NCBI GenBank assembly: GCA_903845195.1
Contig: CAIMWO010000093.1
Location: 1 to 42,624, forward strand
Direction: 5' to 3'
Origin: an uncultured Phycisphaerales bacterium
Lineage (GTDB): Bacteria; Planctomycetota; Phycisphaerae; WQYP01
DNA length: 42,624 bases
Shown here piece after piece: positions 17,473 through 40,443 of this stretch. Within the stretch, counting starts at the first letter, position 1. Every line of letters begins with the position of its first letter. The notes below the pieces were generated by a model. The model did no database searches and had not been told where the DNA came from. It was given only the letters and a program-made list of their open reading frames with translations. A program made the translations under genes and the position numbers.

Positions 17473-17495
17473 GCTCGCCTCTGAAAAATGGAAAG

Positions 17496-19822: not shown

Positions 19823-20695
19823 ATGAATCCCCCACCCCTCTCCCCCCCCCTCTCCCTCGGCCTCTGCTCCTGGTCCACCCGCCAGATCGAAGAGCCCGCA
19901 CTCCGCGCCGCCTTCCAACCCCTCGGCATCAACATCCTCCACCTCGCCCTCAGCCCCCTGGCCGAACTCGACCCCTCCGAACAAACCCACGCCCTCGCCC
20001 AGTTCCGCGCCTCGCCCCTCCAAATCTCCGCCGGCATGATCAGCTTCCCCGGTGAAGATTACCGCACCCTCGCCACCATCCGCGCCACCGGCGGCCTCGT
20101 CCCCGATGACCTCTTCCCCCAACGCCACGCCCTCCTCACCGCCTGCGCCCACCTCGCCCATCAACTCAACCTCCGCCTCGTCTCCACCCACGTCGGCTTC
20201 ATCCCCGCCCAGTCCGACCGCCCCAACTTCGACCGCCTCCGCGACCGCCTCGCATCCATCGCCGACCAGTTCGCCGCTCTCAACCTCACCCTCCTCTTCG
20301 AAACCGGACAGGAAACCGCCGATACCCTCGCCGACTTCCTCACCGTCCTCAACCGCCCTAACGTCGGCGTAAACTTCGACCCCGCCAACATGATCCTCTA
20401 CGGCAAAGGCGACCCCGTCGCCGCCATCCGCACCCTCGCCCCCTGGATCCAGCACGTCCACGCCAAAGACGCCCGCCTCGTCTCACCTCCCCCCAACGAT
20501 CCCACTGCCTGGCGCGCCCACGAAGCTCCACTCGGCCAAGGCGACGCCCACCTCCCCCAAGTCCTCACCGCCCTCAAACAAATCCACTACCCCGGCCCCC
20601 TCATCATCGAACGCGAAGCCACCTCCTCCCGCACCCAGGAAATCCTCGCCGACCTCACCTACCTCCGCTCCCTCATCCCAAAAAATGAAAATTGA
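19823..20695 (+). CDS. Sugar phosphate isomerase/epimerase (xylose isomerase-like TIM barrel).
   Basis: TIM-barrel AP-endonuclease-2 / xylose-isomerase-like motifs (LLFETGQE, VNFDPANM, HAKD). An AGGAG RBS lies upstream. Confidence 0.8.
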   Translation: MNPPPLSPPLSLGLCSWSTRQIEEPALRAAFQPLGINILHLALSPLAELDPSEQTHALAQFRASPLQISAGMISFPGEDYRTLATIRATGGLVPDDLFPQRHALLTACAHLAHQLNLRLVSTHVGFIPAQSDRPNFDRLRDRLASIADQFAALNLTLLFETGQETADTLADFLTVLNRPNVGVNFDPANMILYGKGDPVAAIRTLAPWIQHVHAKDARLVSPPPNDPTAWRAHEAPLGQGDAHLPQVLTALKQIHYPGPLIIEREATSSRTQEILADLTYLRSLIPKNEN

Positions 20696-20718
20696 AAATT
20701 GATAATTGAAAATTATTC
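20681..20718. repeat. A-rich heptad repeat (aaaaatgaaaattgaaaattgataattgaaaatt) containing the stop codon of the isomerase gene.
   Basis: Same TGAAAAY family. The TGA at 20693-20695 is embedded in it. Confidence 0.8.
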
Positions 20719-22879: not shown

Positions 22880-22898
22880 AACATTCGCCGCCCAACCC

Positions 22899-22977
22899 TT
22901 GAAAATTGAAAACTGAAAATTGGAACCCGCCCCTCCACCCTCCTTCTGAATTCCGAACTCTGAATTCTGAATTCGCC
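22899..22977. repeat. A-rich heptad repeat (ttgaaaattgaaaactgaaaattgg) followed by a ctgaattc x3 repeat, in a convergent intergenic region.
   Basis: The TGAAAAY family element sits 20 nt after the GH35 stop. Tandem GAATTC-containing octamers lie at 22944-22977. Confidence 0.75.
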
Positions 22978-22989
22978 ATCCCCTTCCCT

Positions 22990-23475
22990 TCACCCGATCT
23001 TATCAAACGTCACCTGTGTCCTCTTCTCATCGGCGAACCGCGCGTAGTAAACCCGCACGTTCAGTCCAAACTGCGAGAGCAACCGCGTGAAGATCCCCGG
23101 CAGATTCCCAAGATCATGAAGCATCTGTTCTTCGTGCTCGCGCCCCCCGGTGACACGGTCGGTAAGCGTATGATAAAAGCCACAGTCTTCATGATTGATC
23201 AAGACGATCTGCCGGATCTCGCCGAAGCGTTCGAGCAGCGATTCGATGCGCCCCACTAGAAACGCAAAATCCTTGGGCAGGCGTTCCGGATGCGAAAAAC
23301 CCGCCGCCCCGCCCCGAATCACCACCGGCACGTATTCGCCGTCCTGCAGGTGCAGCTCGTCCTCAATAAACTTACGAAACGCAATCTGAAACCGCGGATC
23401 GCTGCAATGCACGACCAGCGTCGTCGGTTTCGGGCTGGCCACAACCGCGTATGTCTTTGTTCCGGTCTCCGTCAT
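22990..23475 (-). CDS. Hypothetical protein with a beta-carbonic-anhydrase-like metal-ligand motif pair (HCSDPR ... HEDCG). Start set at the internal Met (MTETGTKTY) with an AGGAG RBS.
   Basis: The CxDxR and HxxC motifs are spaced ~60 aa apart, as in beta-CA zinc sites. The rest is not confidently assignable. It lies 62 nt downstream of flotillin on the same strand. Confidence 0.55.
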   Translation of the reverse strand: MTETGTKTYAVVASPKPTTLVVHCSDPRFQIAFRKFIEDELHLQDGEYVPVVIRGGAAGFSHPERLPKDFAFLVGRIESLLERFGEIRQIVLINHEDCGFYHTLTDRVTGGREHEEQMLHDLGNLPGIFTRLLSQFGLNVRVYYARFADEKRTQVTFDKIG

Positions 23476-23570
23476 GCGGGAACTCCTGCGGGACGATTCG
23501 TTCAACACCGCGGCACACGGAACGCTGCACGAAACTCAGCATCGTCGCGCCGCCGCGCTCATGCATCAAC

Positions 23571-25376
23571 TTACGCCTTCGCCGGCGTTGTCGGCACCGG
23601 CTTCGCGGGTGTCGGAACGATCGGGCTCAGCCCAGTGCTCGCCGCCGGCGGAGTCGTGATCGATCCGAGAATCTCATCAAGCCCCTTGGCATCGATACCC
23701 AGTTTCTCCAGGGCCGGGCCCGGGTTGATGCCGCGCGCCTTAAGTTGTGTGAAGAAATTGAGCACCAGGTTGGGAATGGTATTGCCGAAGCGCTCCAGGC
23801 CGTCGGCCTTGCCGTTTCCGTTGCTCCCGCCGCCCATATCGATGATGCGCACCTCGTCGATGCCCTGCATCGCGTGCCCGAGCGGTTCGAAAATCGCCGC
23901 CGCCACTTTCGCCGCGGCATCCCCGCCCCTGTCGAACAACGCCGGCAGACGATCCAGCACCAGAATCAGACGTGCGTCCGTGCTCATCTGACCCAAGGCT
24001 TCGGCCAGCTTCAGCGTGCCCTCGGCCTCGGCCAGCAGCACCTTGCCCTTCATCGCCGCCTGACCTTCCGCTTGCGCCATCAGCAACTGCTTCGTCCCTT
24101 CAGCCTCGGCAACCAGCAACGCTTTCTTCTTCGCCGCATCGCCTTCCGCCTGGGCCACCAGAACCGCCTTGGTCTTCGACGCTTCACCTTCGCCCTGCGC
24201 TATCTGCGCCGATCGTGCACCGTCGGCTTCCAGAACCGCACGCTGCTTGGTGGCCTCGGCCTGCAGAATCGCCACGCTCTTGGCCGCCTCCGCGTTGATG
24301 ACCGACTGCTGCTGCGCCGCTTGCGCTTCGATGATGGCCTTCTCCTTGGCCGCCTCGGCCGGGCGAATCACCGTGGCCACAAGTTCCTGCTCCTTCCGCA
24401 TCGCTTCCTTCTGCGCCACCAGCACCTGCGCCTCACGCTGCGCCGCGTCACGCTCCGCCTCCTTCACCAGCAGGATCTGCTCCTGCAACGCCGTCGCAAT
24501 CGCCAGCGCCTTGTCCGCCTTGGCCAACTCGCTGTCGGCCACCACCTTGAACTGCGCCTTCTTCACGTCCCGATCTCGTTCCGCCTCGGCAACCGCCACG
24601 GCGTTCTGCGCCTGCACCACCGAAGCCTCACGCGCCGCATCGCTGACCTTCTTCTTCGTCGCCGAATCCGCCTCGGCCACCTTGATGTTCGCGTCACGCA
24701 CCGCCTCGGCCACCGCCTGCTTGCCCAATGCGTCGATATACCCGTACTGGTCCGTCACTTCCTGGATCACCAGCGTGATCACCTGGATCCCCAGCCGATG
24801 CAACTCTTCCGCCGATTCGTCCACCACCTTGCGGTTGAACGTGTCCCGCTCGCGCAGAATTTCCTGAATGCTCAGCTTCCCGATGATCGAACGCAGGTGC
24901 CCCTGCAGGATGTTCCGGACGAACTCGAGAATCTGCTGATCCGTCTTGCCCAGGAACGCCATCGCGGCGTTGTGCACGTCTTCCGGCGCCGTCGAAATCT
25001 TGATGCTCGCAACGCCGCGCACGTTGATCTGCACGTTGTCCTTGTTCGGTATCTTCGTCTCGTCGATCTCGGACTGCTGGGCCGCCGTCGACATCACCTG
25101 CAGGTGCTCGACGATCGGGTACAGCAGCGCGCCGCCGCCGGCCACCACGCGAAAACCCCGGTACGCCGTCTTGCCGTCAGCGTCCGTGTACTTGTACTTG
25201 CGGCCGTAGAAAATACCCACCGCGTTGGGCGGAATCTTCTTGTAACGGGTGGCCATCGTGTAAACCACCACCACGAACGCCACCGCGATGATGACGATGA
25301 CGAATGGAATCAGCAGCCCCCCCAATGACTTGCTGAAATTCGCGGATTCCTGTGCCAGGATCTGCAGACTGACCAT
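23571..25376 (-). CDS. Flotillin-family SPFH/band-7 protein (YqiK/FloT-like).
   Basis: N-terminal TM helix, SPFH domain and a long Ala/Glu-rich coiled-coil with flotillin-type repeats (AEAEG...). The protein is 601 aa. Confidence 0.85.
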   Translation of the reverse strand: MVSLQILAQESANFSKSLGGLLIPFVIVIIAVAFVVVVYTMATRYKKIPPNAVGIFYGRKYKYTDADGKTAYRGFRVVAGGGALLYPIVEHLQVMSTAAQQSEIDETKIPNKDNVQINVRGVASIKISTAPEDVHNAAMAFLGKTDQQILEFVRNILQGHLRSIIGKLSIQEILRERDTFNRKVVDESAEELHRLGIQVITLVIQEVTDQYGYIDALGKQAVAEAVRDANIKVAEADSATKKKVSDAAREASVVQAQNAVAVAEAERDRDVKKAQFKVVADSELAKADKALAIATALQEQILLVKEAERDAAQREAQVLVAQKEAMRKEQELVATVIRPAEAAKEKAIIEAQAAQQQSVINAEAAKSVAILQAEATKQRAVLEADGARSAQIAQGEGEASKTKAVLVAQAEGDAAKKKALLVAEAEGTKQLLMAQAEGQAAMKGKVLLAEAEGTLKLAEALGQMSTDARLILVLDRLPALFDRGGDAAAKVAAAIFEPLGHAMQGIDEVRIIDMGGGSNGNGKADGLERFGNTIPNLVLNFFTQLKARGINPGPALEKLGIDAKGLDEILGSITTPPAASTGLSPIVPTPAKPVPTTPAKA

Positions 25377-25405
25377 GATGATCTCCTTTGAGACTCGACT
25401 TCGTT

Positions 25406-25933
25406 TCAGGCCTTCTCGACCACAAGTTCACTTCCAACCGTGCTCACCACGCGGACCGTCGCCCCCCGGGGAAGAGACTGCCCGTTGGCGGATTTCGCGG
25501 TGAAATTCATGTACTGGCCCGCAGCGCTTACCCCGACTTCGCCGAGACTGCTGCTCTCAATCGAAACGGTCACCGTGCCCGACGCGCCCACCAGCGAATT
25601 GGTCGGCACCAGCGACGAAGACTGCTGCTTGCTGATCAAACTCAAAAACCCGTACATCACCAGTCCCAGCACCACGCCCGCAATCACGCCGTAAAGCGAG
25701 GAGACCGGGTAACTGCATTCGTAATGCCGCGCAATGGCACCCACCCCGCCGAAACCCATCGCAAACGTGCAGATGACTTTCGTCGAAAATATGCTCACCG
25801 TGTGCTCGGTGACCGCATCGCCATGATCGATCCCGTGATCCACGGCGCCGCCGGCATCATGGTCGTGACCGAACATGAACGCGCCCGCCAGAACGACAAA
25901 CGCAGCCACCGCGATCGAGAGGAAAATCAGCAT
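25406..25933 (-). CDS. NfeD-like membrane protein (YqiJ-like partner of flotillin).
   Basis: N-terminal TM helices plus a C-terminal OB-fold-like beta domain (GTVTVSIESSSLGEVGVSAAGQYMNFTAKSANGQSLPRGATVRVVS). It sits immediately upstream of the flotillin gene, the classic NfeD-SPFH operon. Confidence 0.7.
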   Translation of the reverse strand: MLIFLSIAVAAFVVLAGAFMFGHDHDAGGAVDHGIDHGDAVTEHTVSIFSTKVICTFAMGFGGVGAIARHYECSYPVSSLYGVIAGVVLGLVMYGFLSLISKQQSSSLVPTNSLVGASGTVTVSIESSSLGEVGVSAAGQYMNFTAKSANGQSLPRGATVRVVSTVGSELVVEKA

Positions 25934-26239
25934 GTCACTCTCCTTTTACGGAACGACCGCCGGAAAAAGCAAAGCGCGGCATTATGTGCGGGAATCGCAA
26001 ACCTTTTGCGGAGAATTGAAAGGCGGACATCATTTCACGCTCCAGGATGCTCATTGCCGCCGCCGGCTCTTATGCAGGAACGCCATCAGCTTCCCGCTCG
26101 TCAGAGAAGAAGAATGCCTTCCTTCCCGACGCAATATAACACCGATAGCCACAGCAGCAAGGGCGGCATTTCCCTCGCGCACAACAACCGACTACCCCCG
26201 CCGCTTGACCGAGCTAAGTGCCTCGGTTAATCCCCTGCT

Positions 26240-27145
26240 ATGCAACTGCAAAGCCCCCTCCCATCGCTCTCACGCTACACCTTCGGCACCGGCCGCATCC
26301 GCGCCACCGCTGATTCCTTTGCGGCCGATGTAAAATTGGTGCGGGGCGTCATGGAAACCGGCGTGGCCATCCATACCAGTTCAGACTATGGACATGGCGG
26401 CCATGATGTGCAACCGTTCGGCGGCGGCCAAACGCTCAAAGTCCTTCACGCCGCCTTCGCCGAGGCGCCCACGCAAATTCCTAAAATCGTCGTCAAGCTC
26501 TACTGCGCCACGGTCGACAACGCCCGCGGCCACCTCGAACTGATCCTCCGCGGCTTGGGAGTCGATCGCATTGACGTCGCTCAACTCTGCACCTGGGCCG
26601 ATTTCGCCGATGACTTTCGCCAACAAGGGCCGCGCTGGCAGGTGTTCAAGGAGTTCAAGGAAAAGCGACTCATTGGCAACTACGTCGCCGAGATCTTTTC
26701 GCCCTGGTCGCAAAATGCCCTGCCCGTCATCCAGGAAGAGTTGGTCGATGCCGCCATTTTCTACTACAACCTCGTCGATCGGCAGGTCAACAACGAAGTG
26801 TGGGATCTGATCGAAGCAAAGAAAACCAAAGTGTTCGCACTGCGGACGCTCGGCGGAATCTGTCCGGATCTGGACCGCGTCGAAGTGGTCGCGACCAACG
26901 CGGGCGCGGACCCGATGCGCTCCATGCTCGCCGCGCTCCAGGGGCTCTACAAGCAGTCGGGCTGCCGAAACTGGGTGGAGTTCAGCATGCGGTTCGCTCT
27001 GAGCATCCCCAACGTTCTCACCACCATCGGCGCCACCAATAACCTCCACCACGTCCACGCCTTCCTCGCGGCAGAGCGGGCCTTCCAACCGCTGCCGCAG
27101 GATGTGATGCAGCAAATCAAAACCCTGCATCGGCAGTGGTTCTAG
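26240..27145 (+). CDS. Aldo/keto reductase-like protein (divergent).
   Basis: Weak AKR signatures (SRYTFGTG near the N-terminus; LGVDRIDVAQLCTW resembles the AKR 'LDRIDLYQIH' region). Assignment is tentative. Confidence 0.45.
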   Translation: MQLQSPLPSLSRYTFGTGRIRATADSFAADVKLVRGVMETGVAIHTSSDYGHGGHDVQPFGGGQTLKVLHAAFAEAPTQIPKIVVKLYCATVDNARGHLELILRGLGVDRIDVAQLCTWADFADDFRQQGPRWQVFKEFKEKRLIGNYVAEIFSPWSQNALPVIQEELVDAAIFYYNLVDRQVNNEVWDLIEAKKTKVFALRTLGGICPDLDRVEVVATNAGADPMRSMLAALQGLYKQSGCRNWVEFSMRFALSIPNVLTTIGATNNLHHVHAFLAAERAFQPLPQDVMQQIKTLHRQWF

Positions 27146-27161
27146 GCCAAGGCTTATCTTT

Positions 27162-27974
27162 ATGAATCAGAACCCCCTCACGCCAACGGTAACCAACTGG
27201 GACGAACAGCGTCGAAGCTTCGATCGGGTGGCGGAGGCCTACGACACGTTCCGGCCTGGTTATCCTCGCGAGCTCATTGCGGCCATCGTCGCGGCCGCCG
27301 CACTCCGGGCCGAGTCGCGGCTCCTGGAAATTGGCAGCGGAACGGGCAAGGCTACCGCGGAGTTTGCGTCGCTGGGCTGCTCGATTTTGGGCGTAGAGCC
27401 CGGACCCGAACTGGCCGCGGTGGCGGCACGGCGTCTGGCAGCTTTTCCACGAGTGACCTTTCAGCAGGCCCGCTTTGAAGACTGCACGCTGCCACCGGAG
27501 CCTTTTGACCTGGTATTCTCAGCGCAGGCGTTTCACTGGGTTACGCCCGAGGTTGGTCTGACCAAGGCCGCCGAAGCTCTGAAGCCGGGCGGCTGGCTGG
27601 CGTTGTTCTGGAACCGCTATCCGGGCATGGTGGGAGCCTTGGCGCAGGAGATCCAAGAGGCTTATGACGGCTTGGGCGTGGCGTCGATGGTAACGCCCGA
27701 TTACGCACAGAAGATGGAGCGCGACATTCGCGAGCGGCAGGAACACCTGGAGCGCTCGGGGCTGTTCTCCGGGCTCCAAGTGTTGCGCTTCGCATGGTCC
27801 GTCCAGTACACCGCGCAGCAATACCTCGGGCTGTTGGGCACATACTCGGACCACATCACGCTGCCCGCCACGCAGCGGGCCGCGTTGTTCGCGGGCGTCG
27901 CGGCCGCCATTGAACGCCACGGCGGGTTAATCGACCGGCCTTATGTGGCTGTGCTGCACTTGGCGCAGCGGTGA
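27162..27974 (+). CDS. Class I SAM-dependent methyltransferase.
   Basis: SAM-binding motif LLEIGSGTGKAT, acidic loop ILGVEPGPEL and motif post-I LKPGGWLALFW. Confidence 0.85.
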   Translation: MNQNPLTPTVTNWDEQRRSFDRVAEAYDTFRPGYPRELIAAIVAAAALRAESRLLEIGSGTGKATAEFASLGCSILGVEPGPELAAVAARRLAAFPRVTFQQARFEDCTLPPEPFDLVFSAQAFHWVTPEVGLTKAAEALKPGGWLALFWNRYPGMVGALAQEIQEAYDGLGVASMVTPDYAQKMERDIRERQEHLERSGLFSGLQVLRFAWSVQYTAQQYLGLLGTYSDHITLPATQRAALFAGVAAAIERHGGLIDRPYVAVLHLAQR

Positions 27975-27992
27975 GCGCGGTGCGCCGGGTGC

Positions 27993-28027
27993 CATGGTCT
28001 TGGCACTATCTCGGTGCCAAGACCATG
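27993..28027. terminator. Perfect 14-bp stem hairpin (catggtcttggcac-tatctcg-gtgccaagaccatg) 19 nt after the methyltransferase stop.
   Basis: Inverted repeat seen directly. No U-tract follows, so it is rho-independent-like at best. Confidence 0.5.
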
Positions 28028-28289
28028 CCGATGGCGCCTCGTAATCGGATCCCGCGTCCATTTCACAATTTCGACCAGACATTGGCCTGGCCACGGAGGG
28101 TCACCGAAACCCGAAACGCACCGTGAACCCCGTATCGCATAACTCTTAACTCGTCATACCTGCGTGTCCCCCGTGAAGTGGTTTCACCCCGTTGCGATTG
28201 CCTAAACTCTCACACATCCATGCGCAACCATATCATCCCCCATCCTCCCCAAAAGAAAAATAATCTCATCGCTAACTCCCGCCCCTCCC

Positions 28290-28830
28290 AACACCTACCG
28301 CCTCTCCCCTCCACACTTGCGCGCACAAACATGGTCCTCCACCTCTTCTATAGAAGGACGAACCACGGTCCACGGCCCACGCCCGGAGCCCCCTATGCGA
28401 TGCCAGCATCCATTCTCCCCCCGTGAAAATTGGAAATTGATAATTGAAAATTTCCCCCATCGTCCGTCGTGCCACCGTGTCGTCGTGGTTCCCTTCCGCC
28501 TCGCGCAAAAAACCTGCGCATCTCTCTCTGAAAAGATCCCCACCTCGCCGAAGCCGAGGAACCAGCAACACTTACGAAAACAAAACGAAAAAGGACCTCT
28601 GCGCAGGTGCGCAAAAAACCTTGCGCATCTCCCCCTGAAAATCTGCGCAGGTGCGCAACCCCCCACGGCCCACGGACCACGACCCACGGCCAACGAACCC
28701 CCTTCCCCCCATGAAAATTGTAAAGTGAAAATTGAAAATTCGCTCCCCATTCGTGTCCATTTGTGGTCCGTCCCCGTCGTGCCGTCGTGCCGTCGCGGCG
28801 TCGCCGTTCAATCCGATGTCTCTCAAAACT
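28290..28830. repeat. Complex non-coding repeat region. Two tandem imperfect copies of a ~250-bp composite unit: (CCACGGCC)n, then a TGAAAAY A-rich block, then a gtcgtgcc(r)tcgtg block. Between them is an internal duplicated unit gcgcaaaaaacctgcgcatctc...ctgaaaa / ctgcgcaggtgcgcaa.
   Basis: Direct repeats seen on manual alignment: 28367-28385 vs 28660-28700; 28423-28453 vs 28711-28740; 28460-28495 vs 28745-28800; 28500-28535 vs 28605-28640; 28596-28613 vs 28643-28660. Confidence 0.7.
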
Positions 28831-29070
28831 CATGCGCACCTTGGGAAACTCATAAGAATCTTGGGAGAAAATCACATGTTTTCCGAAAAATTCATGAGTA
28901 TCTTGGGCAAAACTCGCACTTTTGCACCAAAATACCCGCAAAAACGCCTCCATTTTCCCATCCTTCGTGCCTGGGTACCTTGGCGTTTCCATCCCCCCGC
29001 CCCGCACCGTCACAATTTCTCGCACCGAAGCTCGCCTCTTAAGATACACTTCACCCCCGGAGGCAAACCC

Positions 29071-30270
29071 ATGAAAAACAATCCCCCCATCTTCCTCACA
29101 TCCTGCTTCATCCTCGCCCTCGCCGCCCTCGCCACCACCGCCGCCTCCGCCGACACCCTCAAAGTCGGCCCCAACGAAAAATTCGCCAAACCCTCCGACG
29201 CCTTCAAACTCGCCCACCCTGGCGACACCATCGAAATCGCCCCCGGCTCCTACCCCGGCGATGTCGCCACACTCTCCACCCCCAAACTCACCATCCGCGG
29301 CCTCGGCAAAGAACCCGTCAAAATCCCCGCCGCCGGAAAAAATGCCCAGGGCAAAGCCATCTGGGTCGCCGCCGCCTCCGACCTCACCATCGAAAACATC
29401 GAGTTCTCCGGCGCCCGCGTCCCCGACCGCAACGGCGCCGGCATCCGCGTCGAAGCCCCCAACCTCTCCATCCGCAACTGCCGCTTCATCGATTGCGAAG
29501 ACGGCATCCTCGGCGGCAACGGCGACCTCCTCATCGAACACTGCACCTTCGACCACTGCGGCCCCGTCGCCAACCCCGCCACCCACTCCGTCTACATCTC
29601 CGACCGCTGCACCAAACTCGTCTTTCAATACAACTACTCCACCTTCTCCATCGAAGGCCACCTCCTTAAAACCCGCGCCAAGGAAAGCTGGATCCTCTAC
29701 AACCGCCTCGCCGACGAAAAAGGCACCGGCTCCGCCGTCGCCGATTTTCCCAACGGCGGTTACGTCGTCATGATCGGCAACATCCTCCAAAAAGGAACCA
29801 ACGCCCAGAACACCCGCGTCATCGCCTACGGCATGGAAGGCATCAAACACACCAATAACGCCCTCTTCGTCATCAACAACACCATGGTCTACGAGAACCA
29901 CCGCTCCGGCGCGTTCTTCGTCAACGTCCAGAAAACCCCCGCAGACTTTACCCCCATCATCCGCAACAACCTCTGCGTCGGCACCATCCCCCTGACCAAC
30001 AGTCCCAAGTTCGATGCCACCAATAACCTTCTGCTCAAGACCGTCGGCGAAGCCCACTTCGTCGATCCCGAAAAATTCGATTACCACCTGAAACCCGATT
30101 CGCCCGCCCTCGACAAGGCCGCCGCCCCCGGCAAAGCCGGCGACTTCGACCTGACCCCCAAATTCCAATATCTCCACCCCGCCCAATCCGAAGCTCGCCC
30201 CCTCCTCGCCCCCCTCGACCTCGGCGCTTATGAATGGACCAAGTCCCCCGCTCGCCACTCTGATCCCTGA
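29071..30270 (+). CDS. Secreted right-handed parallel beta-helix repeat protein (pectate-lyase-fold; polysaccharide lyase/hydrolase-like). Start set at the internal Met with a GGAGG RBS, not the ORF-track start at 28732.
   Basis: Signal peptide MKNNPPIFLTSCFILALAALATTAASA. PbH1-type beta-helix repeats (NGAGIRVEAPNLSIRNCRFIDCEDGILGGNGDLLIEHCTFDHCG). Confidence 0.7.
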   Translation: MKNNPPIFLTSCFILALAALATTAASADTLKVGPNEKFAKPSDAFKLAHPGDTIEIAPGSYPGDVATLSTPKLTIRGLGKEPVKIPAAGKNAQGKAIWVAAASDLTIENIEFSGARVPDRNGAGIRVEAPNLSIRNCRFIDCEDGILGGNGDLLIEHCTFDHCGPVANPATHSVYISDRCTKLVFQYNYSTFSIEGHLLKTRAKESWILYNRLADEKGTGSAVADFPNGGYVVMIGNILQKGTNAQNTRVIAYGMEGIKHTNNALFVINNTMVYENHRSGAFFVNVQKTPADFTPIIRNNLCVGTIPLTNSPKFDATNNLLLKTVGEAHFVDPEKFDYHLKPDSPALDKAAAPGKAGDFDLTPKFQYLHPAQSEARPLLAPLDLGAYEWTKSPARHSDP

Positions 30271-30276
30271 CCGCCG

Positions 30277-31545
30277 CTATTTTCCAGCCGGTTTGTCTTC
30301 ATCAGGTTTCATCGACTTAAAACTGCGGTAAAGGAGCACATCGTAGACAATCTTAATTCCCCCCGACAAAAAGAACGGCACGCTGATCAGCGCCGGCACC
30401 GCCAACAATAACCCTGCCAGCGATGGCGCAATCGCCGCCCCCGCCGTCCGCGCCACCCCCGTGATCCCCGAGGCTGCCGAACGCTCGCTCGGATCGACCA
30501 CCGCCATTGTGTACGACTGCCGCGTCGGCACATCCATCTGCGAAATCGAAAACCGCAGCAACAGCATCGTAATCGCCAGTTCCTTGTTCGGCATCAGCGG
30601 CACCAGGATCAACAAAATGTTCGACGGAATATGCGTATACACCATCGTCTCGATCAATCCGATCCGTCGCGCCAGCGACGCCGCCGAAAGCGCCGATATC
30701 CCCGCTAGAACATTGGCCCCCAGGAAAATCGCCCCCAGCATCGATGGCGATACGCCAAACCGCACATGGAACCAGTACGCCGCGATGCTCTGCACCACAA
30801 ACCCACCCCCAAAGGCATCCAGTGCAAACAGAGATGAAAGCTTGAACACCACCTTCTTCGACTTGTGCAATCCCAGCAGAACCGGCCCTGCCGTAAAGCG
30901 TCCCTCCGGTGGCAACTCCACCGCCGGCGTGAGCAATAGAAATAACCCCGCCAGCACCAGCCCCAGCGCCGCGTATCCAAAGATTACCGCGCGAAAACTG
31001 TCCAACGCCGTCCAACCCGCGCGCTGGAACAGATCGACCGCGACCCCGCCCACCAAAGCCCCCAGCGCCGTCGCCATCGAGCCGATCAGGTTGTACCACG
31101 CGAAAACGGCGGTGCGTTCTTCGTTGGGCACAATCTGCGAAAGCGATGCCTGTTCGATCGACAGAAACGGCCCGACCTCGTTGCCGCTGGGACTGATCAC
31201 GCCGATCGTCGCGGCCACCAGCAGCAGCCAGTAATTCGTGGTCAGCCCGAAGATGATCCCCGCCAGCACCAGCAGCAGAGCGCCGATCACCAGCATTCTC
31301 TTCCTGCCAAACCGGTCCGCCGTGGTCGTGATCCAGAGCGAGACCGCCGTATCGCCGACGAGCGTGAGCGTAAGCAGCAAACCAATTTTGGGATCGGGGA
31401 TTCCTATCTCGGCCAGATACAACACAAGGATGATGGAGATGAGGCCGTAACCGAACAATCGAATGCAGCGCGTGACAAAGAGCAGCACCCCGTCGCGGTT
31501 AAGGGTCTTCAACGATGCCGCATGAGGCAAGATGGAAAGCATCAT
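30277..31545 (-). CDS. MFS transporter. Start set at MMLSILPHAAS, ~20 aa before TM1; the ORF-track start at 31710 is probably too long.
   Basis: Twelve hydrophobic segments and an MFS-like loop motif after TM2 (TADRFGRKRMLVIG). Confidence 0.8.
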   Translation of the reverse strand: MMLSILPHAASLKTLNRDGVLLFVTRCIRLFGYGLISIILVLYLAEIGIPDPKIGLLLTLTLVGDTAVSLWITTTADRFGRKRMLVIGALLLVLAGIIFGLTTNYWLLLVAATIGVISPSGNEVGPFLSIEQASLSQIVPNEERTAVFAWYNLIGSMATALGALVGGVAVDLFQRAGWTALDSFRAVIFGYAALGLVLAGLFLLLTPAVELPPEGRFTAGPVLLGLHKSKKVVFKLSSLFALDAFGGGFVVQSIAAYWFHVRFGVSPSMLGAIFLGANVLAGISALSAASLARRIGLIETMVYTHIPSNILLILVPLMPNKELAITMLLLRFSISQMDVPTRQSYTMAVVDPSERSAASGITGVARTAGAAIAPSLAGLLLAVPALISVPFFLSGGIKIVYDVLLYRSFKSMKPDEDKPAGK

Positions 31546-31740
31546 CACTCGCTTTTCGATTCGCTGGTCCGGTGGTCCTTGGCGATGGATTCGCGCGACA
31601 ATATACGATCTGCATGATGAAGGCGACAGGATGAAAAACGGAAGTAGTGCATCGCCATGTTGACGGTGGGCACCAAACCCGCCAAGTCTCGCCGTTTTTG
31701 ACCCTCTCACAGTGTTGAGCTAAACTGCTCGTGACGATCC

Positions 31741-31827
31741 GGAGGCGTGGCAGAGCGGTTTATTGCACCGGTCTTGAAAACCGGAGAGGGCGCAAGTCCT
31801 CCGTGGGTTCGAATCCTACCGCCTCCG
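31741..31827 (+). tRNA. tRNA-Ser (anticodon UGA), class II with a long variable arm.
   Basis: Manual fold: acceptor GGAGGCG/CGCCTCC; D-arm; anticodon stem CCGGT/ACCGG with loop CTTGAAA (anticodon TGA); long variable arm; T-arm GGTTCGAATCC; discriminator G. CCA is not encoded. Confidence 0.85.
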
Positions 31828-31831
31828 CTTA

Positions 31832-31864
31832 AAACCCTTGGGAATCCAGCGTTCCCAAGGGTTT
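31832..31864. terminator. Perfect 13-bp hairpin (aaacccttgggaa-tccagcg-ttcccaagggttt) immediately 3' of tRNA-Ser, followed by a T-rich tract.
   Basis: Inverted repeat seen directly. The tail ttacgtgttttct follows it. Confidence 0.65.
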
Positions 31865-31968
31865 ACGTGTTTTCTGGGGCAAACACTTCTGTCCACCTCG
31901 TTCCGCCCAATTCCGCCCAAAGCCACCGCAAAAGGCAAAGCAAAAGGCAAAGTGAAACCCACGAAAAC

Positions 31969-33333
31969 TCAGGTGCTGCCTCCTTGGCTTCCCGGTTTCG
32001 GGTTCACGCCGGGCGGCTTCTGGGAAGCGTCCTCAGAACCAACTGGGGGCTTGGTCACGCCCGGCACATTCGGCAATCCCGACAAAGCCTTACTCGTATC
32101 GAGCATACCGGCGTGGGCGTAACGTCCCAGCGTCAGGGTAGGCGTGGAATGCCGTGCCAACTCCTGTGCAGCCTTCATGGGCGCCCCTGAACTCACCAGA
32201 CGTGTAATGAACGTATGACGCAGGGCATGGAAGTCCGCGACGCACTGCTGACCGTCCCGGTAAGCCAGAAAATCCAGCTTCTGACGACGTGCCAATTCCT
32301 CGGCATCTCCGTTGGCTTCTTTGAGCCAAGCCACGCGTGCCACCAACAGATCATGGCGGATCAGCTTGGCCACATGCCACTTCGCGGGCATCGTGGCGAA
32401 GACGCTCTTGCCTTTAGCCTTCGTCGCCAGCCACGCAGCCACCGCAGAAGCAAGAGACGGTTGGATAGGCTGCACATCCGTACGCCGGTGTTTGCTATAG
32501 GCTGCCGCCACGGTGAGTGTCGGTGGCGTGGTATCCAAATTGAAACTCTCCGGAGTCAAGCTGCGAAGCTCACTGGACCGAAAACCTGTGCCGAGTGCCA
32601 AACGGTAGAGCATGCCCCGGTCGGAACCAGAGATGCCCAGAAAAACTTCTCCTTGATCCGCAACAGCCAGCAGACGTTCGACTTCTTCCTCTGACAAGGC
32701 TCTACGGTCATGTCGGCGATCCGTCTTGACGTTAAATCCCTTGAGATGGGCCAATGGATCCTCAGTGGCCCGCCGATCCGATACCAGCCACCGCGTAAAC
32801 GCCTTTATGGCTCGCAGAAAGTGATTCAGGGTCTGGAGGCTCAGCCCCGCGGTTTCGTCATCGCCTTTCCCTATCCGGTCCAAGGCAACCTGTACCCGCG
32901 ACGGAGTAAGGTCACGCAAGTAAACAGTCTTGGACAACTGAAGGATTCGCCTGGCGTCCACGAAGTATCGTTCGGCATGGTACGGAGTGTTTCCCTTGGC
33001 CAGCAGCACCTGCTTCCATTCGGTGAGATGATCTGCCAGCGGTCTTCCCGCACCGGCAAAACGTCCTTCGAGCAGGCCAAGGTCCGCCAGTTTCTTCTGG
33101 ATGTCGGAGCCTTGTGATTGCATCCACTTCACCAGTGAGGCATCGGGCGTCTGACCACTGGCCAAAGAACTCATCAGCTCTTCCATCCGCCGACCAAATG
33201 CTTCGGTTTGTTTCAGGCTGGTGAAGCCGGGCAGGCGACATCGCCTCCGCTTCCATTTGAAATCGATCCACCAGGTGGGGGATTCAATCTTCGTCCCCTC
33301 CTTGGTGGTGTACTTGGGTTTATAGGTTCTCAT
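31969..33333 (-). CDS. Tyrosine-type site-specific recombinase / phage integrase.
   Basis: C-terminal catalytic R..HxxR..Y region (HALRHTFITRLVSSGAPMKAAQELARHSTPTLTLGRYAHA). An N-terminal SAM-like/arm-binding region is present. The start ATG overlaps the stop of the upstream AlpA-like gene (ATGA). Confidence 0.9.
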   Translation of the reverse strand: MRTYKPKYTTKEGTKIESPTWWIDFKWKRRRCRLPGFTSLKQTEAFGRRMEELMSSLASGQTPDASLVKWMQSQGSDIQKKLADLGLLEGRFAGAGRPLADHLTEWKQVLLAKGNTPYHAERYFVDARRILQLSKTVYLRDLTPSRVQVALDRIGKGDDETAGLSLQTLNHFLRAIKAFTRWLVSDRRATEDPLAHLKGFNVKTDRRHDRRALSEEEVERLLAVADQGEVFLGISGSDRGMLYRLALGTGFRSSELRSLTPESFNLDTTPPTLTVAAAYSKHRRTDVQPIQPSLASAVAAWLATKAKGKSVFATMPAKWHVAKLIRHDLLVARVAWLKEANGDAEELARRQKLDFLAYRDGQQCVADFHALRHTFITRLVSSGAPMKAAQELARHSTPTLTLGRYAHAGMLDTSKALSGLPNVPGVTKPPVGSEDASQKPPGVNPKPGSQGGST

Positions 33334-33752
33334 GAAGTCACCTTTTCATTCTGGGGCGTGCTTCGGCCATGCAGGGCATGGCGGAACGACGCAGTGTGTG
33401 TTGTGTTCTTAAGGACTTCCCATTGCTCACGGGCAGGTGCTCCCGCCGAAAGCCAGGCGCGAAGTTCCCCCACCGGCCAGACGCACCGGGCACCCAGCTT
33501 GACGGGCGCAGGAATGCGTCCGGAACTGTCGAGTTCATGCCAGAGAGACTTGCCGATACCGATGAGGGCAGCGGCGTCATCGGCTCCCACCGCTAGGGGT
33601 TCCACCGGTGTCATGCAGATGCGTGAGCGCGCAGAACTTCCCCTCCGCTCTGTAGGCGGTTTTCTGTCGGGGCTCGTAATGGGTTCAGGCGTCTTAGGCT
33701 GGCCAGCGTGGGTCAGCAGATCAGGAGTGAGGCCACCGGTTTCCTTCGCCAT
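33330..33752 (-). CDS. AlpA/excisionase-like HTH DNA-binding protein. The start is uncertain; an alternative Met lies at 33614.
   Basis: An HTH_17/MerR-like motif (AAALIGIGKSLWHELDSSGRIPAPVKLGARCVWPVGELRAWL) sits directly upstream of the integrase and is translationally coupled to it. Confidence 0.6.
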   Translation of the reverse strand: MAKETGGLTPDLLTHAGQPKTPEPITSPDRKPPTERRGSSARSRICMTPVEPLAVGADDAAALIGIGKSLWHELDSSGRIPAPVKLGARCVWPVGELRAWLSAGAPAREQWEVLKNTTHTASFRHALHGRSTPQNEKVTS

Positions 33753-34504
33753 TAAGCGTGAACCGGCAGCCGCGGGACAAGAGTAACCATGAGGTCACCT
33801 TCCGGCCTTGGGGCCATGCCGCGCAGTATCCCTCGAACCAGATTATCACATCGGTTTTCATCGGGAATCCTGCGAGGCGGGAGTGGTTTAGGTCTTAACA
33901 ACGAACGCCGTAGGGGTGGGACGGCAGGCCCTGACTGATGGCTCCAGTGTAGCGCGCCCTCGCACGCTGTCAAGGGTCAACGGGGTCCATCAGGGAGCCC
34001 TAGCCTTACGCTCGGCTCCTCTATTCAGTTGTACCCGAAACGCGTTAAAGCGCAAGTGAATTCTGGACATTTTTAGAAGATTTTCACTGGTGCAGGGGCG
34101 CCCCTGGGCCCCCGGCGATCCCAGCTCCAGCATCCGACAGATCAACGCGGAACTTATTGTCAGACGTGCAAAGATCCCAGGGGTGTTACCATGGCGGTGG
34201 GGATGATGGTTCGGCGATTAAGAATTCGAGGACGTAACTGTGCGCAGCAAAATGACTTACGAACGATATGGTGGAAATACAGCAAAAGCTCGATTTATTG
34301 ACTAGCGCTCGTCCGCGTTTCGGGTAAAATGAACTATGTGAGGCCGCGATCCGAATATCGCGGATGTTCCGGCGGATGCCTTCCTTTGCCGCCGGTTAAG
34401 AATAGCCCATTTATTAAGACCAATACGAGTTCGGCCATTAGGCCGCACCGCCGAAGGTACCCCGTGATCGGATCCCTCCGTGGTGATGTATACGCGAGGT
34501 CCCT

Positions 34505-36178
34505 ATGAAGTCGAAGCAGTCTCTGAAAAAGTCGGGAATTCCCTCCTTCGTGAAGTATTTTCCCAAGTTGGCGGAAGTCATCGGTGACAAGAATGCCCTG
34601 CTCCTGGTGCAGTTGGCGTTCTGGATCGGGAGGGTCAAGCACGAACACGAGGGACGACGCTGGATCTACCAGACGGCAGAGAAAATCAGCGAGGAGTGGT
34701 TCCCTGCCTGGGGCGTGAAGACGGTCCGTCGTACGCTGAAGGAGATGCAGGCACAGGGTTTCCTGATGGTCGGGAACTTCAACAAGCACCGTTATGATCG
34801 CACGCGTTGGTTTGCCATTACTGACAAGGGAATCGAACAGCTTCAGGCCTGTGGAGTGCCTGTGGACGGATTGACCATGTCGAGCACCCAGATCGGCAAG
34901 AAGGATGTGCCCAGACTGACCACACCAGGTGGACAAATTGGGCACATGGAACTGGTCGAAGTGGGCACACCTATACCAGTAGATATAACCAGAGATATTT
35001 CTTCAGAAGAAAACCCAAAAGCAACTGCAGCGGCGGGCGGCAGAGGATTTTCTTCTTTTGATGATGAAGAACCTATCAGCCATGACACAGACCACAGTCC
35101 ATCGACAGCATCAGCAGAGCTCAGTTCACAGAGTTCAGATACTCATTCTCAGGGCAGCCTTCCTGCGACAGAGACACAGACAAGACCCTCTCTTTCTCAG
35201 GCACAGACATTGGAACAGGCTATCCATAGCAGCCTGGGCCTGCATCCCAACATCAAAATCACAGCCACTCTGCTCGATGCAGCTCAAACCAGTGATCAGA
35301 GTCTCAGTGCCATCAAAAGGCTGTCCTGCGATACAACAGCACGACCGGATGTAAGAAATAAGCAGGCATTGCTGACTAAGCGTCTGTTGGATGGAGACTA
35401 CATCTACCATCCCGAAGACCTTTCCGTACTGCGCCGCCACGGCATCGAAGGTCAGACTGCCCATACTGTACTAGCCTCCATCCGTCCGGGCTTGTGTGTG
35501 TTTGAAAAGACACTGGAACAGATTTATGCCATTGCGGAAATGGATCTCGGGAAGCAACTGGATTACCGGTACGAACAACTCGACTGGATCATCCGGTCCA
35601 CGTTGAACGATCCCGATTCCACTGGAGAGTGCAGCATCGAGACAGACGAAGAGGCCCAAAACGCCAATCTGCCCGGTTCTCTGCTGGAACTCTTCAATGA
35701 CGCAGTAAGCCGATGGCGAGACGAACGAGTCGAGGAATACAGTCTTGACGCAGGCACGGCGGAGGAGGTTCCCAGTCTGCCCCCGATGCATCACACTTCT
35801 GCTTCTGCCGCAATACCAGCCCAGGCTGAGGAGCAAGTCAGCGGCGGTCCCGTTGAACCAACCAGCGGAGAGGGCCCGGACGCAGTGAGCATAGTTCCGG
35901 ACAGGACCGTTCTTCCCCTTCCAGAGAGCGTGCCCGCTGAGTCTGCCAAGAAAGCGGTAACTCAGCAGCAACCTGGTGCTGGGCCGGCATCAGTAGGAAC
36001 CCGAACCGCTGAAACCTCGGTCGTCGGTCAGAGAGCTGAAGATCCCCTCTATTTGCGGGCAATGGAGAACCTGGAGCTGGTCAAGCGGCAGATCAAAGAG
36101 AAAGGCAGACGCGATTCCAGTATGGGTATCGGAATGCCGGAAGTGCCGGAGGTGTCAGGACTGGTGGCAGCCGCCTAG
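34505..36178 (+). CDS. Hypothetical protein with an N-terminal winged-helix DNA-binding domain, a candidate replication-initiator/organiser of the element, plus a long acidic/Ser-Gln-rich low-complexity region.
   Basis: The N-terminus (ALLLVQLAFWIGRVKHEHEGRRWIYQTAEKISEEWFPAWGVKTVRRTLKEMQAQGFLMV...RTRWFAITDKG) resembles winged-helix replication-initiator/replisome-organiser N-domains. No precise family was recognised. It is preceded by a 750-bp non-coding region. Confidence 0.4.
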   Translation: MKSKQSLKKSGIPSFVKYFPKLAEVIGDKNALLLVQLAFWIGRVKHEHEGRRWIYQTAEKISEEWFPAWGVKTVRRTLKEMQAQGFLMVGNFNKHRYDRTRWFAITDKGIEQLQACGVPVDGLTMSSTQIGKKDVPRLTTPGGQIGHMELVEVGTPIPVDITRDISSEENPKATAAAGGRGFSSFDDEEPISHDTDHSPSTASAELSSQSSDTHSQGSLPATETQTRPSLSQAQTLEQAIHSSLGLHPNIKITATLLDAAQTSDQSLSAIKRLSCDTTARPDVRNKQALLTKRLLDGDYIYHPEDLSVLRRHGIEGQTAHTVLASIRPGLCVFEKTLEQIYAIAEMDLGKQLDYRYEQLDWIIRSTLNDPDSTGECSIETDEEAQNANLPGSLLELFNDAVSRWRDERVEEYSLDAGTAEEVPSLPPMHHTSASAAIPAQAEEQVSGGPVEPTSGEGPDAVSIVPDRTVLPLPESVPAESAKKAVTQQQPGAGPASVGTRTAETSVVGQRAEDPLYLRAMENLELVKRQIKEKGRRDSSMGIGMPEVPEVSGLVAAA

Positions 36179-36478
36179 CGTTGGCAGAAGCCATGAGCAT
36201 CGGCCCATATAAGGCTCACCAGGCGCCCTGGGAGGCGCGGAGCGCGCATCTGAGCGTTCGATCGACCTGGAAGCCGTCCGAAGGATGGAACGCGCTCCAG
36301 CGCGCCGGGAGCGCGTGGGAACCTTGAGGACCGAATCGTCCGTCTGGTGTATTTCCTCCAAAGCCCGGCTCAATGGGAAATTTCTTCTTGCGCTTGAACC
36401 ATGTTGGCGCTACATTGGAGTGAGACCAGCGATTTTGATCGCTTTCAGTCCAAAGCCAACCATGAATGGGAGAAAACC

Positions 36479-36733
36479 ATGAGTACCCAAGATCCTCTTC
36501 TTATCCTTCCGGATCGGGAAGCCTTCGACCCCACCCAGAATCTCATTCCGCCCTGGATGGCCAACGATGACGGGCTCCGCACTATACCCCTTCACGAGAT
36601 GGCACGGGTTTATCATGTCGGGATGAGCACCCTACGGAGGCACATGCGCCAGGGACGACTCAAGGCGATCAGGGTGGGTCGCTATAAGTGCGTCACGCTG
36701 GGGAATCTCCGGGAGTATTTGGGGGCTGACTGA
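36479..36733 (+). CDS. Excisionase-family HTH DNA-binding protein. Start set at the internal Met with a GGGAGA RBS.
   Basis: The region LHEMARVYHVGMSTLRRHMRQGRLKAIRVGRYKCVTLGNLREYL matches the excisionase/MerR-type HTH. Confidence 0.6.
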   Translation: MSTQDPLLILPDREAFDPTQNLIPPWMANDDGLRTIPLHEMARVYHVGMSTLRRHMRQGRLKAIRVGRYKCVTLGNLREYLGAD

Positions 36734-37218
36734 AGCTCCCAGAGTCATGAATCCCCACTGTTCCTGTTTTGTCCCCCTACTTCTGTTTTTGCCTCCTATG
36801 TTGTGAGGCCTTTCCCCGCCTTTTTCTCACCTCAGCCAAAACCCATTCCGCAACAACCGCTGGATGGCGCCGAAAATCTCTCATGCCCCACCAATACCGA
36901 GTTGCGTGAGCCACGGAATCTCGTTGGAAAAGGAACATCTGTCTCACTAAAAAATGAAATTGAAGGGCGAAATTGCCCCTTTCGGAGTGAAAGGTGCCCA
37001 CCACATGCCCTGTCAGATGCTCGTATAAGGCCTCACCAAATGCTTACACGGACCGGTCCAGAAGGCTTACCAAACTGCTCGAGGAACGGCTCCAACTACT
37101 CACCAACAACCCGTCAGTAAGGCAAGGGAGGACCGTAGCTGGGAGAGCGGTGGCGTGTACTGGACTACCGAAGCCCTACCCGGCGCCTTGGGAGGCGCGT
37201 AGCACGCATAACCACCTA

Positions 37219-37527
37219 TTACCGATCCACCGTCACTGAGTACGGCGGCAACGAAATCTTCAACTTCCCACCAGCGGCCTTGATGTTGGGGGCCAGTGAG
37301 TAGATGACATTCTTGCCTTTCCGTTTCCCGAGGATCAGCCGATTCATCCGCAACAGTCCCAGATGATGACTGACGCTCGGTTGGGCCATTTTGAGTTCCT
37401 CGCATAGGCTGGTCACGTTGCGCTCTCTATTGGCGAGCAGCAGCACCAATCGGAGGCGAGTGCTGTCCGCAAGCAAGCCCAAAAGGTAAGTGAAAGATGC
37501 AAGGGTTTCGTCGGAAGAGCGTGCCAT
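37219..37527 (-). CDS. ArsR/SmtB-family transcriptional regulator. Start set at the internal Met (MARSSDETL).
   Basis: wHTH signature LADSTRLRLVLLLANRERNVTSLCEELKMAQPSVSHHLGLLRMNRLI. Confidence 0.8.
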   Translation of the reverse strand: MARSSDETLASFTYLLGLLADSTRLRLVLLLANRERNVTSLCEELKMAQPSVSHHLGLLRMNRLILGKRKGKNVIYSLAPNIKAAGGKLKISLPPYSVTVDR

Positions 37528-37647
37528 CGTAGAGTTCTCCACATTAGATGCTGGAAGATGCTGCGGTATTGTCACCCAAACCCGCATCGGACTCCATCAG
37601 GACGATGCTTCCTTGGGCCGAACGTTGAGGCTGACAGAACAGGCGAT

Positions 37648-40414: not shown

Positions 40415-40443
40415 GTGTTCGCCTCGTTCTTGTATGAGCAGCC

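Follow-up and report, generated by a model that had tools for sequence, protein, structure and literature searches.

Heptameric simple sequence repeats (SSRs), short tandem arrays with a unit of seven nucleotides, have been on record since 1990, when they were described in cyanobacteria; reports from Xanthomonas, Beggiatoaceae and Bacteroidetes followed, and there is no agreed function or generating mechanism for them. In this report we describe a spacer built largely of such arrays, located at positions 27975-29070 of a 42,624-nt metagenome contig from an uncultured Phycisphaerales bacterium (CAIMWO010000093.1; the entire contig is hereafter called the window), between a class-I methyltransferase gene (27162-27974, + strand) and a gene for a secreted right-handed beta-helix protein. 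The spacer is two parts joined together, the tail of a probably inserted gene block and a repeat element. The arrays are best described as members of the heptameric SSR class, which is known but functionally unexplained; what is new is the phylum and their organisation into a conserved, paralogous mosaic of ~0.75-0.87 kb. An earlier account of the same region, made from the letters of the contig alone (the sequence-only reading), had taken it for non-coding DNA built from nested repeats, and we take up its claims where our results bear on them.

The first heptamers of this kind were reportedly the short tandemly repeated repetitive (STRR) sequences that Mazel et al. described in cyanobacteria in 1990. 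One array of our window, (GTCATTG)n at 7203-7243, is a rotation of the cyanobacterial STRR2 unit TTGGTCA. As with STRR, several 7-nt units occur in one genome and form short, intergenic tandem arrays of no known function. The differences are that the host here belongs to the Planctomycetota (Phycisphaerae), that most of the units are not those of STRR, and that the arrays form a conserved multi-module element of ~0.75 kb with paralogous copies.

Mosaic repeats of other kinds offer a second comparison. The bacterial interspersed mosaic elements (BIMEs) of Escherichia coli, the pneumococcal BOX elements (A-Bn-C) and the Correia elements of Neisseria are dispersed, extragenic, non-coding mosaics of a few short modules that vary in number and order and can form stem-loops, and some of them influence the expression of neighbouring genes. 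Their size is 40-300 bp, and palindromic units or terminal inverted repeats are their defining feature. With its modular, extragenic build and with modules that vary between copies, the element described here is closer to BIME and BOX than to simple SSRs. It differs from all three, however, in being ~750-870 nt long, in consisting largely of tandem arrays of the heptamer type, and in having no detectable terminal repeats.

The G-rich heptamers of Xanthomonas (GGGAATC) and Nostoc (GGGGAYT) are intergenic, mostly about four units long, sometimes arranged as inverted pairs, and in related strains retained at the same intergenic positions (Rehm et al., 2015; PMC4692102). The arrays of our window resemble them in length (~4-5 units) and include one inverted pair, at 17485-17576, whereas their units are not G-quadruplex (G4)-forming and fall into many types with no single dominant family. 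TAACTGA heptamers stand in 2-6 copies beside start codons in marine Beggiatoaceae, cyanobacteria and some Bacteroidetes; in these genomes the same unit is found in distant phyla, different heptamer types are mixed within intergenic regions, and contigs end in the arrays (MacGregor, 2015; PMC4679880). In the same way, the (GAAAATT)n and (CCACGGN)n units of our window recur across contigs of widely differing G+C content, but the units are different, and the arrays of the element, at 270-700 nt from the start codon, are not directly upstream of it. Finally, a survey of long SSRs ascribed an excess of period 7 to polymerase slippage (Mrazek, Guo and Shah, 2007, as reported in PMC4679880 and PMC4692102). 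Our window shares the excess of period 7 over other periods; conserved multi-array cassettes and the same array in frame in two genes, both found here, form no part of that survey as the two later papers relate it.

Architecture of the Element

The main body of the element occupies 28206-28950 on the + strand, a stretch recognised by its lack of codon periodicity, by its homology to two other metagenome contigs (L395 and P0243) and by a predicted fold that beats shuffled sequence. On this strand C is abundant (37%) and G scarce (18%). Its backbone is a pair of cassettes with identical module order, (CCACGGN)n-(TGAAAAT)4-(CCGTCGTG)n. Cassette A consists of a left array, (CCACGGN)x~3, at 28358-28381 (Tandem Repeats Finder, TRF, and repeat search), a central (TGAAAAT)x4 array at 28424-28452 (TRF), 28 of whose 29 positions are identical to an array at 20686-20714, and a right array of the CCGTCGTG type at 28464-28488, which is complementary to the CCACGG arrays and kept in L395. 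In cassette B, TRF delimits a left (CCCACGG)x4.9 array at 28662-28695, again kept in L395, a central (TGAAAAT)x4 array at 28712-28740, and a right side at 28747-28806 in which (CCATTYGTGT)x2 is followed by (CCGTCGTG)x3.8 at 28774-28806, an array of period 8. The TGAAAAT arrays of the two cassettes are 89% identical across 37 nt, the cassette cores match one another in a BLAST self-comparison (E = 4e-8), and unit A compared with a model of unit B gives E = 1.8e-9 (nhmmer). The two imperfect copies in the same order that the sequence-only reading had noticed are therefore there; its tandem ~250-bp unit is not, because the conserved cassette is only ~135 nt long (range ~130-145), the copies start 288-310 nt apart (start-to-start spacings of 307, 288 and 310 nt), and ~170 nt of a different module separate them.

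This middle module (28503-28658, + strand) contains GCGCAAAAAACC(T)TGCGCATCTC...CTGAAAA twice, at 28507 and 28614, and the 17-mer TCTGCGCAGGTGCGCAA twice. The copies of the internal duplication, AAAAAACC(T)TGCGCATCTC..CTGAAAA, are 86% identical to each other, and the 17-mer, which is of the TGCGCA-NN-TGCGCA type, is repeated exactly at 28598 and 28642 with a spacing of 44 nt, so the internal duplicated palindromic unit proposed earlier is borne out. Downstream of cassette B are three direct 20-mers of the form AAAYTCATnnGnAYCTTGGG (28826, 28846 and 28888; module 28826-28907, + strand) with a small palindrome, GAAAATCACATGTTTTC, sitting among them at 28867-28883. The module lies 164-245 nt upstream of the beta-helix ATG. 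The 20-mer has three matches in the window where 0.24 are expected, and the 17-mer motif two where 0.25 are expected. The 20-mer module, the best conserved of all, is a candidate protein-binding or promoter core. The triplet had escaped the sequence-only reading, as had the recurrences of TGAAAAT at 8534, 12154, 20681 and 22899. In all, the element combines arrays of 7-, 8-, 10- and 20-nt units with TGCGCA palindromes. From 28951 to 29070 (+ strand) the spacer is specific to this locus: the homology to L395 ends at ~28925-28950, and GGAGG stands at 29059-29063.

The region 27975-29070 is non-coding, as had been claimed. Between 27980 and 28940 the spread of GC content over the three codon positions is at most 0.15, against 0.3-0.5 in the flanking genes, and thus there is no 3-base periodicity. 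The 241-aa and 621-aa open reading frames (ORFs) contain no Pfam domain and the 621-aa ORF shadows the beta-helix gene on the antisense strand, which agrees with their earlier dismissal as compositional artefacts. When the 241-aa ORF was compared with 1.84 billion representative proteins only three matches appeared, all without a Pfam domain; one is an ORF call at this very locus, and the other two, from related loci, we read as calls on non-coding DNA. A profile made of the 241-aa ORF and its two relatives had no matches beyond those three ORF calls, and the protein clusters of nine ORF calls made on the element contained no additional copies. Public gene calls on the element, of 215 and 185 aa here (28395-29042 and 28484-29041) and of 263 and 220 aa at related loci (among them L395, 108-899), stand in protein databases as unnamed entries without a Pfam domain. 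The differences between the window and L395 are not codon-like either: the 82 mismatches split 22/26/34 by codon position (p = 0.26), and with three indels of 1, 2 and 2 nt the homology crosses reading frames. A conserved protein-coding gene spanning the region was looked for and not found.

Copies at Other Loci

L395, an 899-nt contig from another sample, matches the window at 82.9% identity over 469 nt (28464-28922) and at 89% over 28307-28352. Past the element it diverges into a different gene, whose product begins MKQLLLLGLGAGFLFAAAGC and looks like a putative lipoprotein. The other copy is on P0243, a 5,889-nt contig from ERZ1426827, directly upstream of yidC; here residues 49-220 of an ORF match the translation of 28212-28715 (E = 1.6e-35). 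All three copies have one orientation relative to the downstream genes, which are unrelated (beta-helix protein, putative lipoprotein and YidC), and the distance from the end of the 20-mer module to the start codon is 164 nt in the window and ~141 nt in L395. The copies are mosaics of each other: in L395 and P0243 the CCACGG and TGAAAAT arrays of cassette A are replaced by another module of ~110 nt, and L395 holds one extra 10-mer relative to the window. Identity between the window and L395 is uneven, mostly 70-87% per bin, with 93% at 28650-28679 and 56% in the last CGTCG array. The best-conserved stretch is 28830-28919 (90-97%); in L395 the three 20-mers and the two 17-mers are all preserved, the 17-mers being identical.

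The majority of contigs with the beta-helix gene break off within the element, beginning at 28239, 28268, 28687, 28747 and 28776, the contig of the only close relative (P0121, a 98%-identical variant) begins at ~28203, and two contigs of 813 and 899 nt are almost nothing but element. Breaks of this sort inside the element are the pattern expected of a multi-copy repeat. From the differing downstream genes, from the contig breaks and from the presence of both the P0121 and P0243 contigs in ERZ1426827, we infer several copies per genome; the 42.6-kb window itself has no second copy. BLAST and nhmmer searches against ~400 retrieved loci gave only L395 beyond matches to arrays alone, a BLAST search of the spacer against phage and plasmid collections gave no match, and a scan of viral contigs for the 20-mer module likewise found none. 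The comparison of syntenic regions suggested by the sequence-only reading showed that the spacer is absent from 59 genome loci with beta-helix homologs, which also lack the strong skew and the excess of heptamer arrays described below.

Among the contigs of the beta-helix locus, one (L003) begins with 45 unrelated bases, which join the element within its (CCATTYGTGT) repeat at 28747; its sequence also departs from the window at 28752, 28756 and 28757. This junction is either an assembly chimera over a dispersed repeat or a structural variant.

A Probably Inserted Block Ends in the Spacer

A block of different base composition extends from 23000 to 28205; it carries a 172-aa ORF and genes that Pfam identifies as SPFH/Band7, NfeD, aldo-keto reductase and methyltransferase, after which come a hairpin and a tail of ~180 nt. 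The GC skew of the block is -0.12, against -0.33 and -0.36 on its two flanking sides, and the steps are sharp (23000-23030 and 28180-28210): at the left border the skew goes from -0.67 to -0.08 across 22970-23090, and at the right border from -0.24 to -0.77 across 28150-28270. The third-position C values of the block genes are intermediate. The paralogous P0243 locus is collinear with the window but without this ~5.2-kb block. To the left of the block, directly after the stop codon of a GH35 gene (22879), lies a putative stub of the ancestral spacer and element (22880-22998, + strand) in which TRF and the sequence place (TGAAAAT)x3.4 at 22899-22922 and (TTCTGAA)x4.4 at 22944-22974. In P0243 the residues SEFRTLNSEF equal the translation of this (TTCTGAA)n array, and the homolog of 28212-28715 stands directly next to them; in the window the TTCTGAA array and 28212 are 5.2 kb apart. 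Because the skew steps coincide with the break in collinearity to P0243, we conclude that ~23000-28205 was probably inserted into an older non-coding region of ~1 kb between the GH35 and beta-helix genes, and that the first ~230 nt of the studied spacer (27975-28205, hairpin included) would be the end of this insert. The earlier suggestion of a decayed insertion thus holds only for 27975-28205 as part of this putative insert, but neither tblastn nor the periodicity analysis detected a gene remnant. A repeat search found neither direct nor inverted repeats at the borders of the block, and Pfam found no recombinase gene in it.

The hairpin (27993-28027, + strand) starts 19 nt past the methyltransferase stop codon and is a perfect inverted repeat (27993-28006 / 28014-28027) with 14-bp arms and a 7-nt loop; its RNA fold has -29.6 kcal/mol (z = -4.56), and it is unique within the window. 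It had been called a perfect terminator hairpin. The perfect 14-bp stem stands; its role as a terminator is only presumed, since no T-run is present (CCGATGGCGCC comes after it) and a terminator scan did not call it. It is likely a transcript-end hairpin of the inserted block, devoid of a U-tail and lying outside the repeat element, and a U-less terminator at this site is possible. In Rfam at E <= 1 it drew just two matches to miRNA models, both far sub-threshold.

Heptamer Arrays across the Window and Beyond

The repeat blocks of the element are local instances of a population of heptamer arrays, each ~30 nt long, that runs through the window. Arrays with a period of 7 and 2.7-5.6 copies were located by TRF at 28363, 28424, 28662, 28712 and ten other sites. 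In a census of periods, 11 arrays of period 7 stand against 0.0 in 20 block shuffles and against 0-2 at other non-multiple periods (4-13), and their density in the window is 0.26/kb, compared with 0.033/kb in 631 kb of control loci from planctomycetes and others. At least eight unit types are present. Arrays of (TGAAAAT)n with about four units recur at 8534, 12154, 20681 and 22899, each at or just past the stop codon of a + strand gene, and those at 20686 and 28424 have common internal variants. Other arrays of ~30 nt are found at 7203 (GTCATTG[C]), 8613 (CATTCAT), 10417 and 18250 (CGTTTCG), 17485/17547 (AAAATAG and its inverse) and 22944 (TTCTGAA). Lengths are narrowly distributed at ~4-5 units. 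All of these arrays fall in strongly skewed 'native' DNA (1-23000 and 28206-31700 of the window), where GC skew is about -0.33, locally reaching -0.85, whatever the orientation of the genes; among the genes of this DNA, the third-position C value is 0.71-0.79 for the + strand and mostly 0.08-0.22 for the - strand.

Twelve of the 14 TRF arrays of period 7 are intergenic or overlap a stop codon. The remaining two are stop-free and in frame inside genes, both as (GAAACRC)n: one at 10417-10448 in a gene for NDH-2 (9798-11279, - strand), the other at 18250-18283 in a gene for an M19 dipeptidase (17558-18580, - strand). The NDH-2 array specifies the peptide ETRNMKGETRN, which is inserted with respect to PDB 4nwz, and the dipeptidase array specifies ETRNTKRETRNG.

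Two further arrays have distinctive settings. At 17485-17576, between two - strand genes, (AAAATAG)n faces the inverse (TTTTCTA)n over ~20 nt; the pair would form a long A/U-rich hairpin close behind the stop codon of one gene and 13 nt ahead of the start codon of the next. The (GTCATTG[C])n array at 7203-7243 is just upstream of a gene that starts at 7271.

The same units are met well outside this organism. Searches for the pattern GAAAATTGNNAANTGNNAATTGAAAATT gave at least 120 metagenome contigs and 36 contigs of IMG/VR, with G+C values of 0.21-0.63; heptamer arrays of other types are about seven times as frequent in these loci as in the controls. Arrays of (CCACGGN)x2.7 are present in at least 120 IMG/VR contigs, and contigs with (GAAAATT)n and (CCACGGN)n together span G+C values of 0.21-0.75. 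In the two phage-like contigs that were inspected (L209 and L188), most gaps between co-directional genes are filled by arrays, and another contig, L065, has three unit types in common with the window. Among 166 GAAAATT arrays of metagenome contigs, no clear rule of orientation relative to genes or skew was apparent, and our literature search found no mention of GAAAATT arrays in bacteria.

Possible Origin and Role of the Element

The reading that we hold to be probable on balance is that the spacer is a composite, made of the end of an insert and one copy of a lineage-specific, dispersed, modular non-coding element, for which we propose the following mechanism and function. What the data show directly are the repeats, the absence of coding signal, the copies at paralogous loci, the change in base composition and the surplus of heptamer arrays throughout the window. 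Arrays would arise and turn over through slipped-strand mispairing with a bias toward heptamers, as the general literature proposes; a local duplication would have produced cassettes A and B; and recombination or template switching at the arrays may have moved modules from one copy to another, as the mosaic pattern suggests. As for function, the element might serve as an upstream spacer or leader of the downstream gene. Alternative stem-loops, either A-left:A-right together with B-left:B-right or A-right:B-left, could stop or process read-through transcripts, and the strongly conserved, phased 20-mer triplet with the 17-mer pair would be the parts most likely to bind a protein or to form the promoter core of the downstream gene. 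A regulatory or leader role is plausible, though hypothetical. Regulator binding sites, which the sequence-only reading had listed among its candidate explanations, would suit the triplet of 20-mers and the pair of 17-mers reasonably well.

Several observations weigh against this account. The available contigs of the beta-helix locus represent one strain, in which the region is 100% identical across samples, the sole difference being one C in the C-run at 28454 (L004). The copies of the element come from different metagenome samples, two as DNA and one as a translation. The P0243 junction is likewise known from translation only, and its match of the TTCTGAA stub to 22941-22990 is short (E = 7.5e-5) and embedded in proline-rich noise. 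Since the ORF of P0243 ends 75 nt before yidC, the 20-mer module is apparently lacking there and so not universal. A sigma-70 scan gave no promoter-like site near the 20-mers. On the side of RNA structure, the - strand folds nearly as strongly (z = -3.4 and -3.0) as the + strand, and only 4 of 89 predicted pairs are changed on both sides, in a comparison of two sequences, too few to judge covariation.

The rival that survives best, although we regard it as rather unlikely, sees the element as non-coding DNA that the genome tolerates, where slippage-prone arrays accumulated and underwent local duplication; the likeness to L395 and P0243 would then be due to recent duplication or gene conversion and not to function. 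Arrays at gene ends across the native DNA, and even in frame in two genes, would fit a mutational process filtered by selection; modules are exchanged or lost between copies; the relatives of the downstream gene manage without the spacer; and there is neither an Rfam match nor a promoter signal. Such DNA should hardly be conserved as unevenly as this, however, with the 20-mer module so far above most other bins and the 17-mers unchanged. Also against it are the shared orientation and start-codon distance of the copies seen, and the narrow rather than broad range of array lengths.

It is unlikely that the element is primarily an operator array, in which the 20-mer triplet and the paired TGCGCA-NN-TGCGCA 17-mers bind one or more regulators of downstream envelope-protein genes and the heptamer arrays are passengers. 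The two motifs are the best-conserved parts between copies and, within the window, unique to the element; the 20-mers are 20 and 42 nt apart, about two and four helical turns and thus in helical phase, and two copies place them at a similar distance from the ATG. However, no gene for a regulator lies next to the element, no promoter hexamers were found, and just two copies with the motifs are known, P0243 seeming to be without the 20-mers. The same sigma-70 and terminator scan reported one weak promoter-like site at 28209-28236 and two terminator-like sites on the minus strand, which is chance level.

We give still less weight to a cis-acting RNA, a long structured 5' leader, transcribed together with the downstream gene, in which alternative CCACGG/CGTCGTG pairings would switch attenuation or transcript processing. 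For the + strand, the predicted folds are more stable than those of shuffled sequence (z = -4.5 for the 745 nt of the main body, -4.4 for 28458-28700 and -3.8 for L395), with a slight advantage over the - strand as well. Four arrays, alternately of the CCACGG and the CGTCGTG type, are complementary to one another, which would permit 1:2/3:4 or 2:3 pairing; in the predicted fold of 28458-28700, A-right pairs with B-left around the TGCGCA module, and this pairing is kept in L395. The fixed orientation relative to the downstream genes also agrees with such a leader. Yet because the - strand folds nearly as well, the signal may reflect inverted repeats of the DNA rather than RNA. Left:right pairing within single cassettes reaches just z = -2.3 and -2.8, segment 1 is missing from L395 and P0243, covariation is unusable, no arm is followed by a U-tract, and the RNA would be G-poor. 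The structured RNA that the sequence-only reading had offered as a candidate, and for which it had advised a covariance search, drew no support from the covariance models of Rfam 15: at gathering score the only match in the window is a tRNA, and the element has no relevant match even at E <= 1. In a separate check for G-quadruplexes, no G4 motif was present in the region on either strand, and that interpretation was rejected.

More doubtful again is a proposal that goes beyond this locus, namely that heptamer arrays are the product or target of a dedicated process common to many bacteria and phages, and that the element is a functional leader for envelope-protein genes acting through the pairing of complementary arrays. 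Such a process is hinted at by the recurrence of units over a wide range of G+C, by the filling of gene gaps in phage contigs, by the length of about four units, by the variants shared between 20686 and 28424 and by the in-frame insertions.

A non-autonomous mobile element, of a large kind resembling miniature inverted-repeat transposable elements (MITEs) or of a repetitive extragenic palindromic (REP)/BIME-like kind, mobilised in trans by a transposase encoded elsewhere, we regard as very unlikely. It would account for the presence at unrelated loci, for the contig breaks within the element and for the absence of ORFs. On the other hand, the copies are just ~83% identical, their ends are ragged, and the mosaic modules add up to no defined unit. 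Within the element there is no transposase and there are no terminal inverted repeats of 12 nt or longer, the best inverted matches being internal or 10-15 nt at 73-90%, and no direct duplications flank it. A MITE identity was rejected for want of terminal inverted repeats and of a target-site duplication. That the region is a real but unusual, or decayed, protein-coding gene is scarcely credible: gene callers do predict ORFs on it here and at related loci, but codon periodicity and Pfam domains are both lacking, the 1- and 2-nt indels shift the frame, mismatches are even over codon positions, and the proteins encoded beside beta-helix homologs leave no trace in the spacer (tblastn against the window, seven Planctomycetota loci).

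The Downstream Gene and Other Features of the Contig

The gene downstream of the element (29071-30270, + strand) encodes a secreted right-handed beta-helix protein of 399 aa (Pfam PF13229, E = 3.8e-10). It starts with the ATG at 29071, preceded by the GGAGG mentioned above, and the N-terminus of the protein, judged by eye, looks like a signal peptide. Homologs at 60-74% identity are found in Phycisphaerae and other Planctomycetota. For homologs at 62-74% identity the upstream gene is mostly ~70-165 nt away, the exceptions being an overlap in L007 and two loci, L008 and L011, with no filtered ORF close by.

The source is a Phycisphaerae-like planctomycete by its NAD-dependent DNA ligase, which reaches no more than 60-62% identity to any other sequence and whose named matches are from Phycisphaerae. 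Toward its right end the contig changes character. After a tRNA-Ser(TGA) at 31741-31828 come a phage-type integrase gene (31969-33333, - strand) and ~10 kb of zero GC skew up to 42624, and 31741-42624 is probably an integrated element. Two same-strain contigs are 100% identical to the window and then switch abruptly: L393 at about position 420 of the window, with 35 mismatches clustered in 310-420, and L001, in its positions 1-709, to unrelated sequence at 22621, inside the GH35 gene. These switches are either strain variants or chimeras.

Implications

On the practical side, the element breaks metagenome assemblies and gives rise to spurious 'hypothetical protein' calls, four such ORFs now standing in public databases. 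For the heptameric SSRs as a class, the locus extends their known range to the Planctomycetota, and it does so in the form of a conserved element of several modules whose placement and orientation ahead of the downstream genes are constant. The arrays that lie in frame within NDH-2 and the dipeptidase, together with the recurrence of the same units over phyla and phage contigs, bear on whether such repeats are the outcome of neutral slippage or of something more specific.

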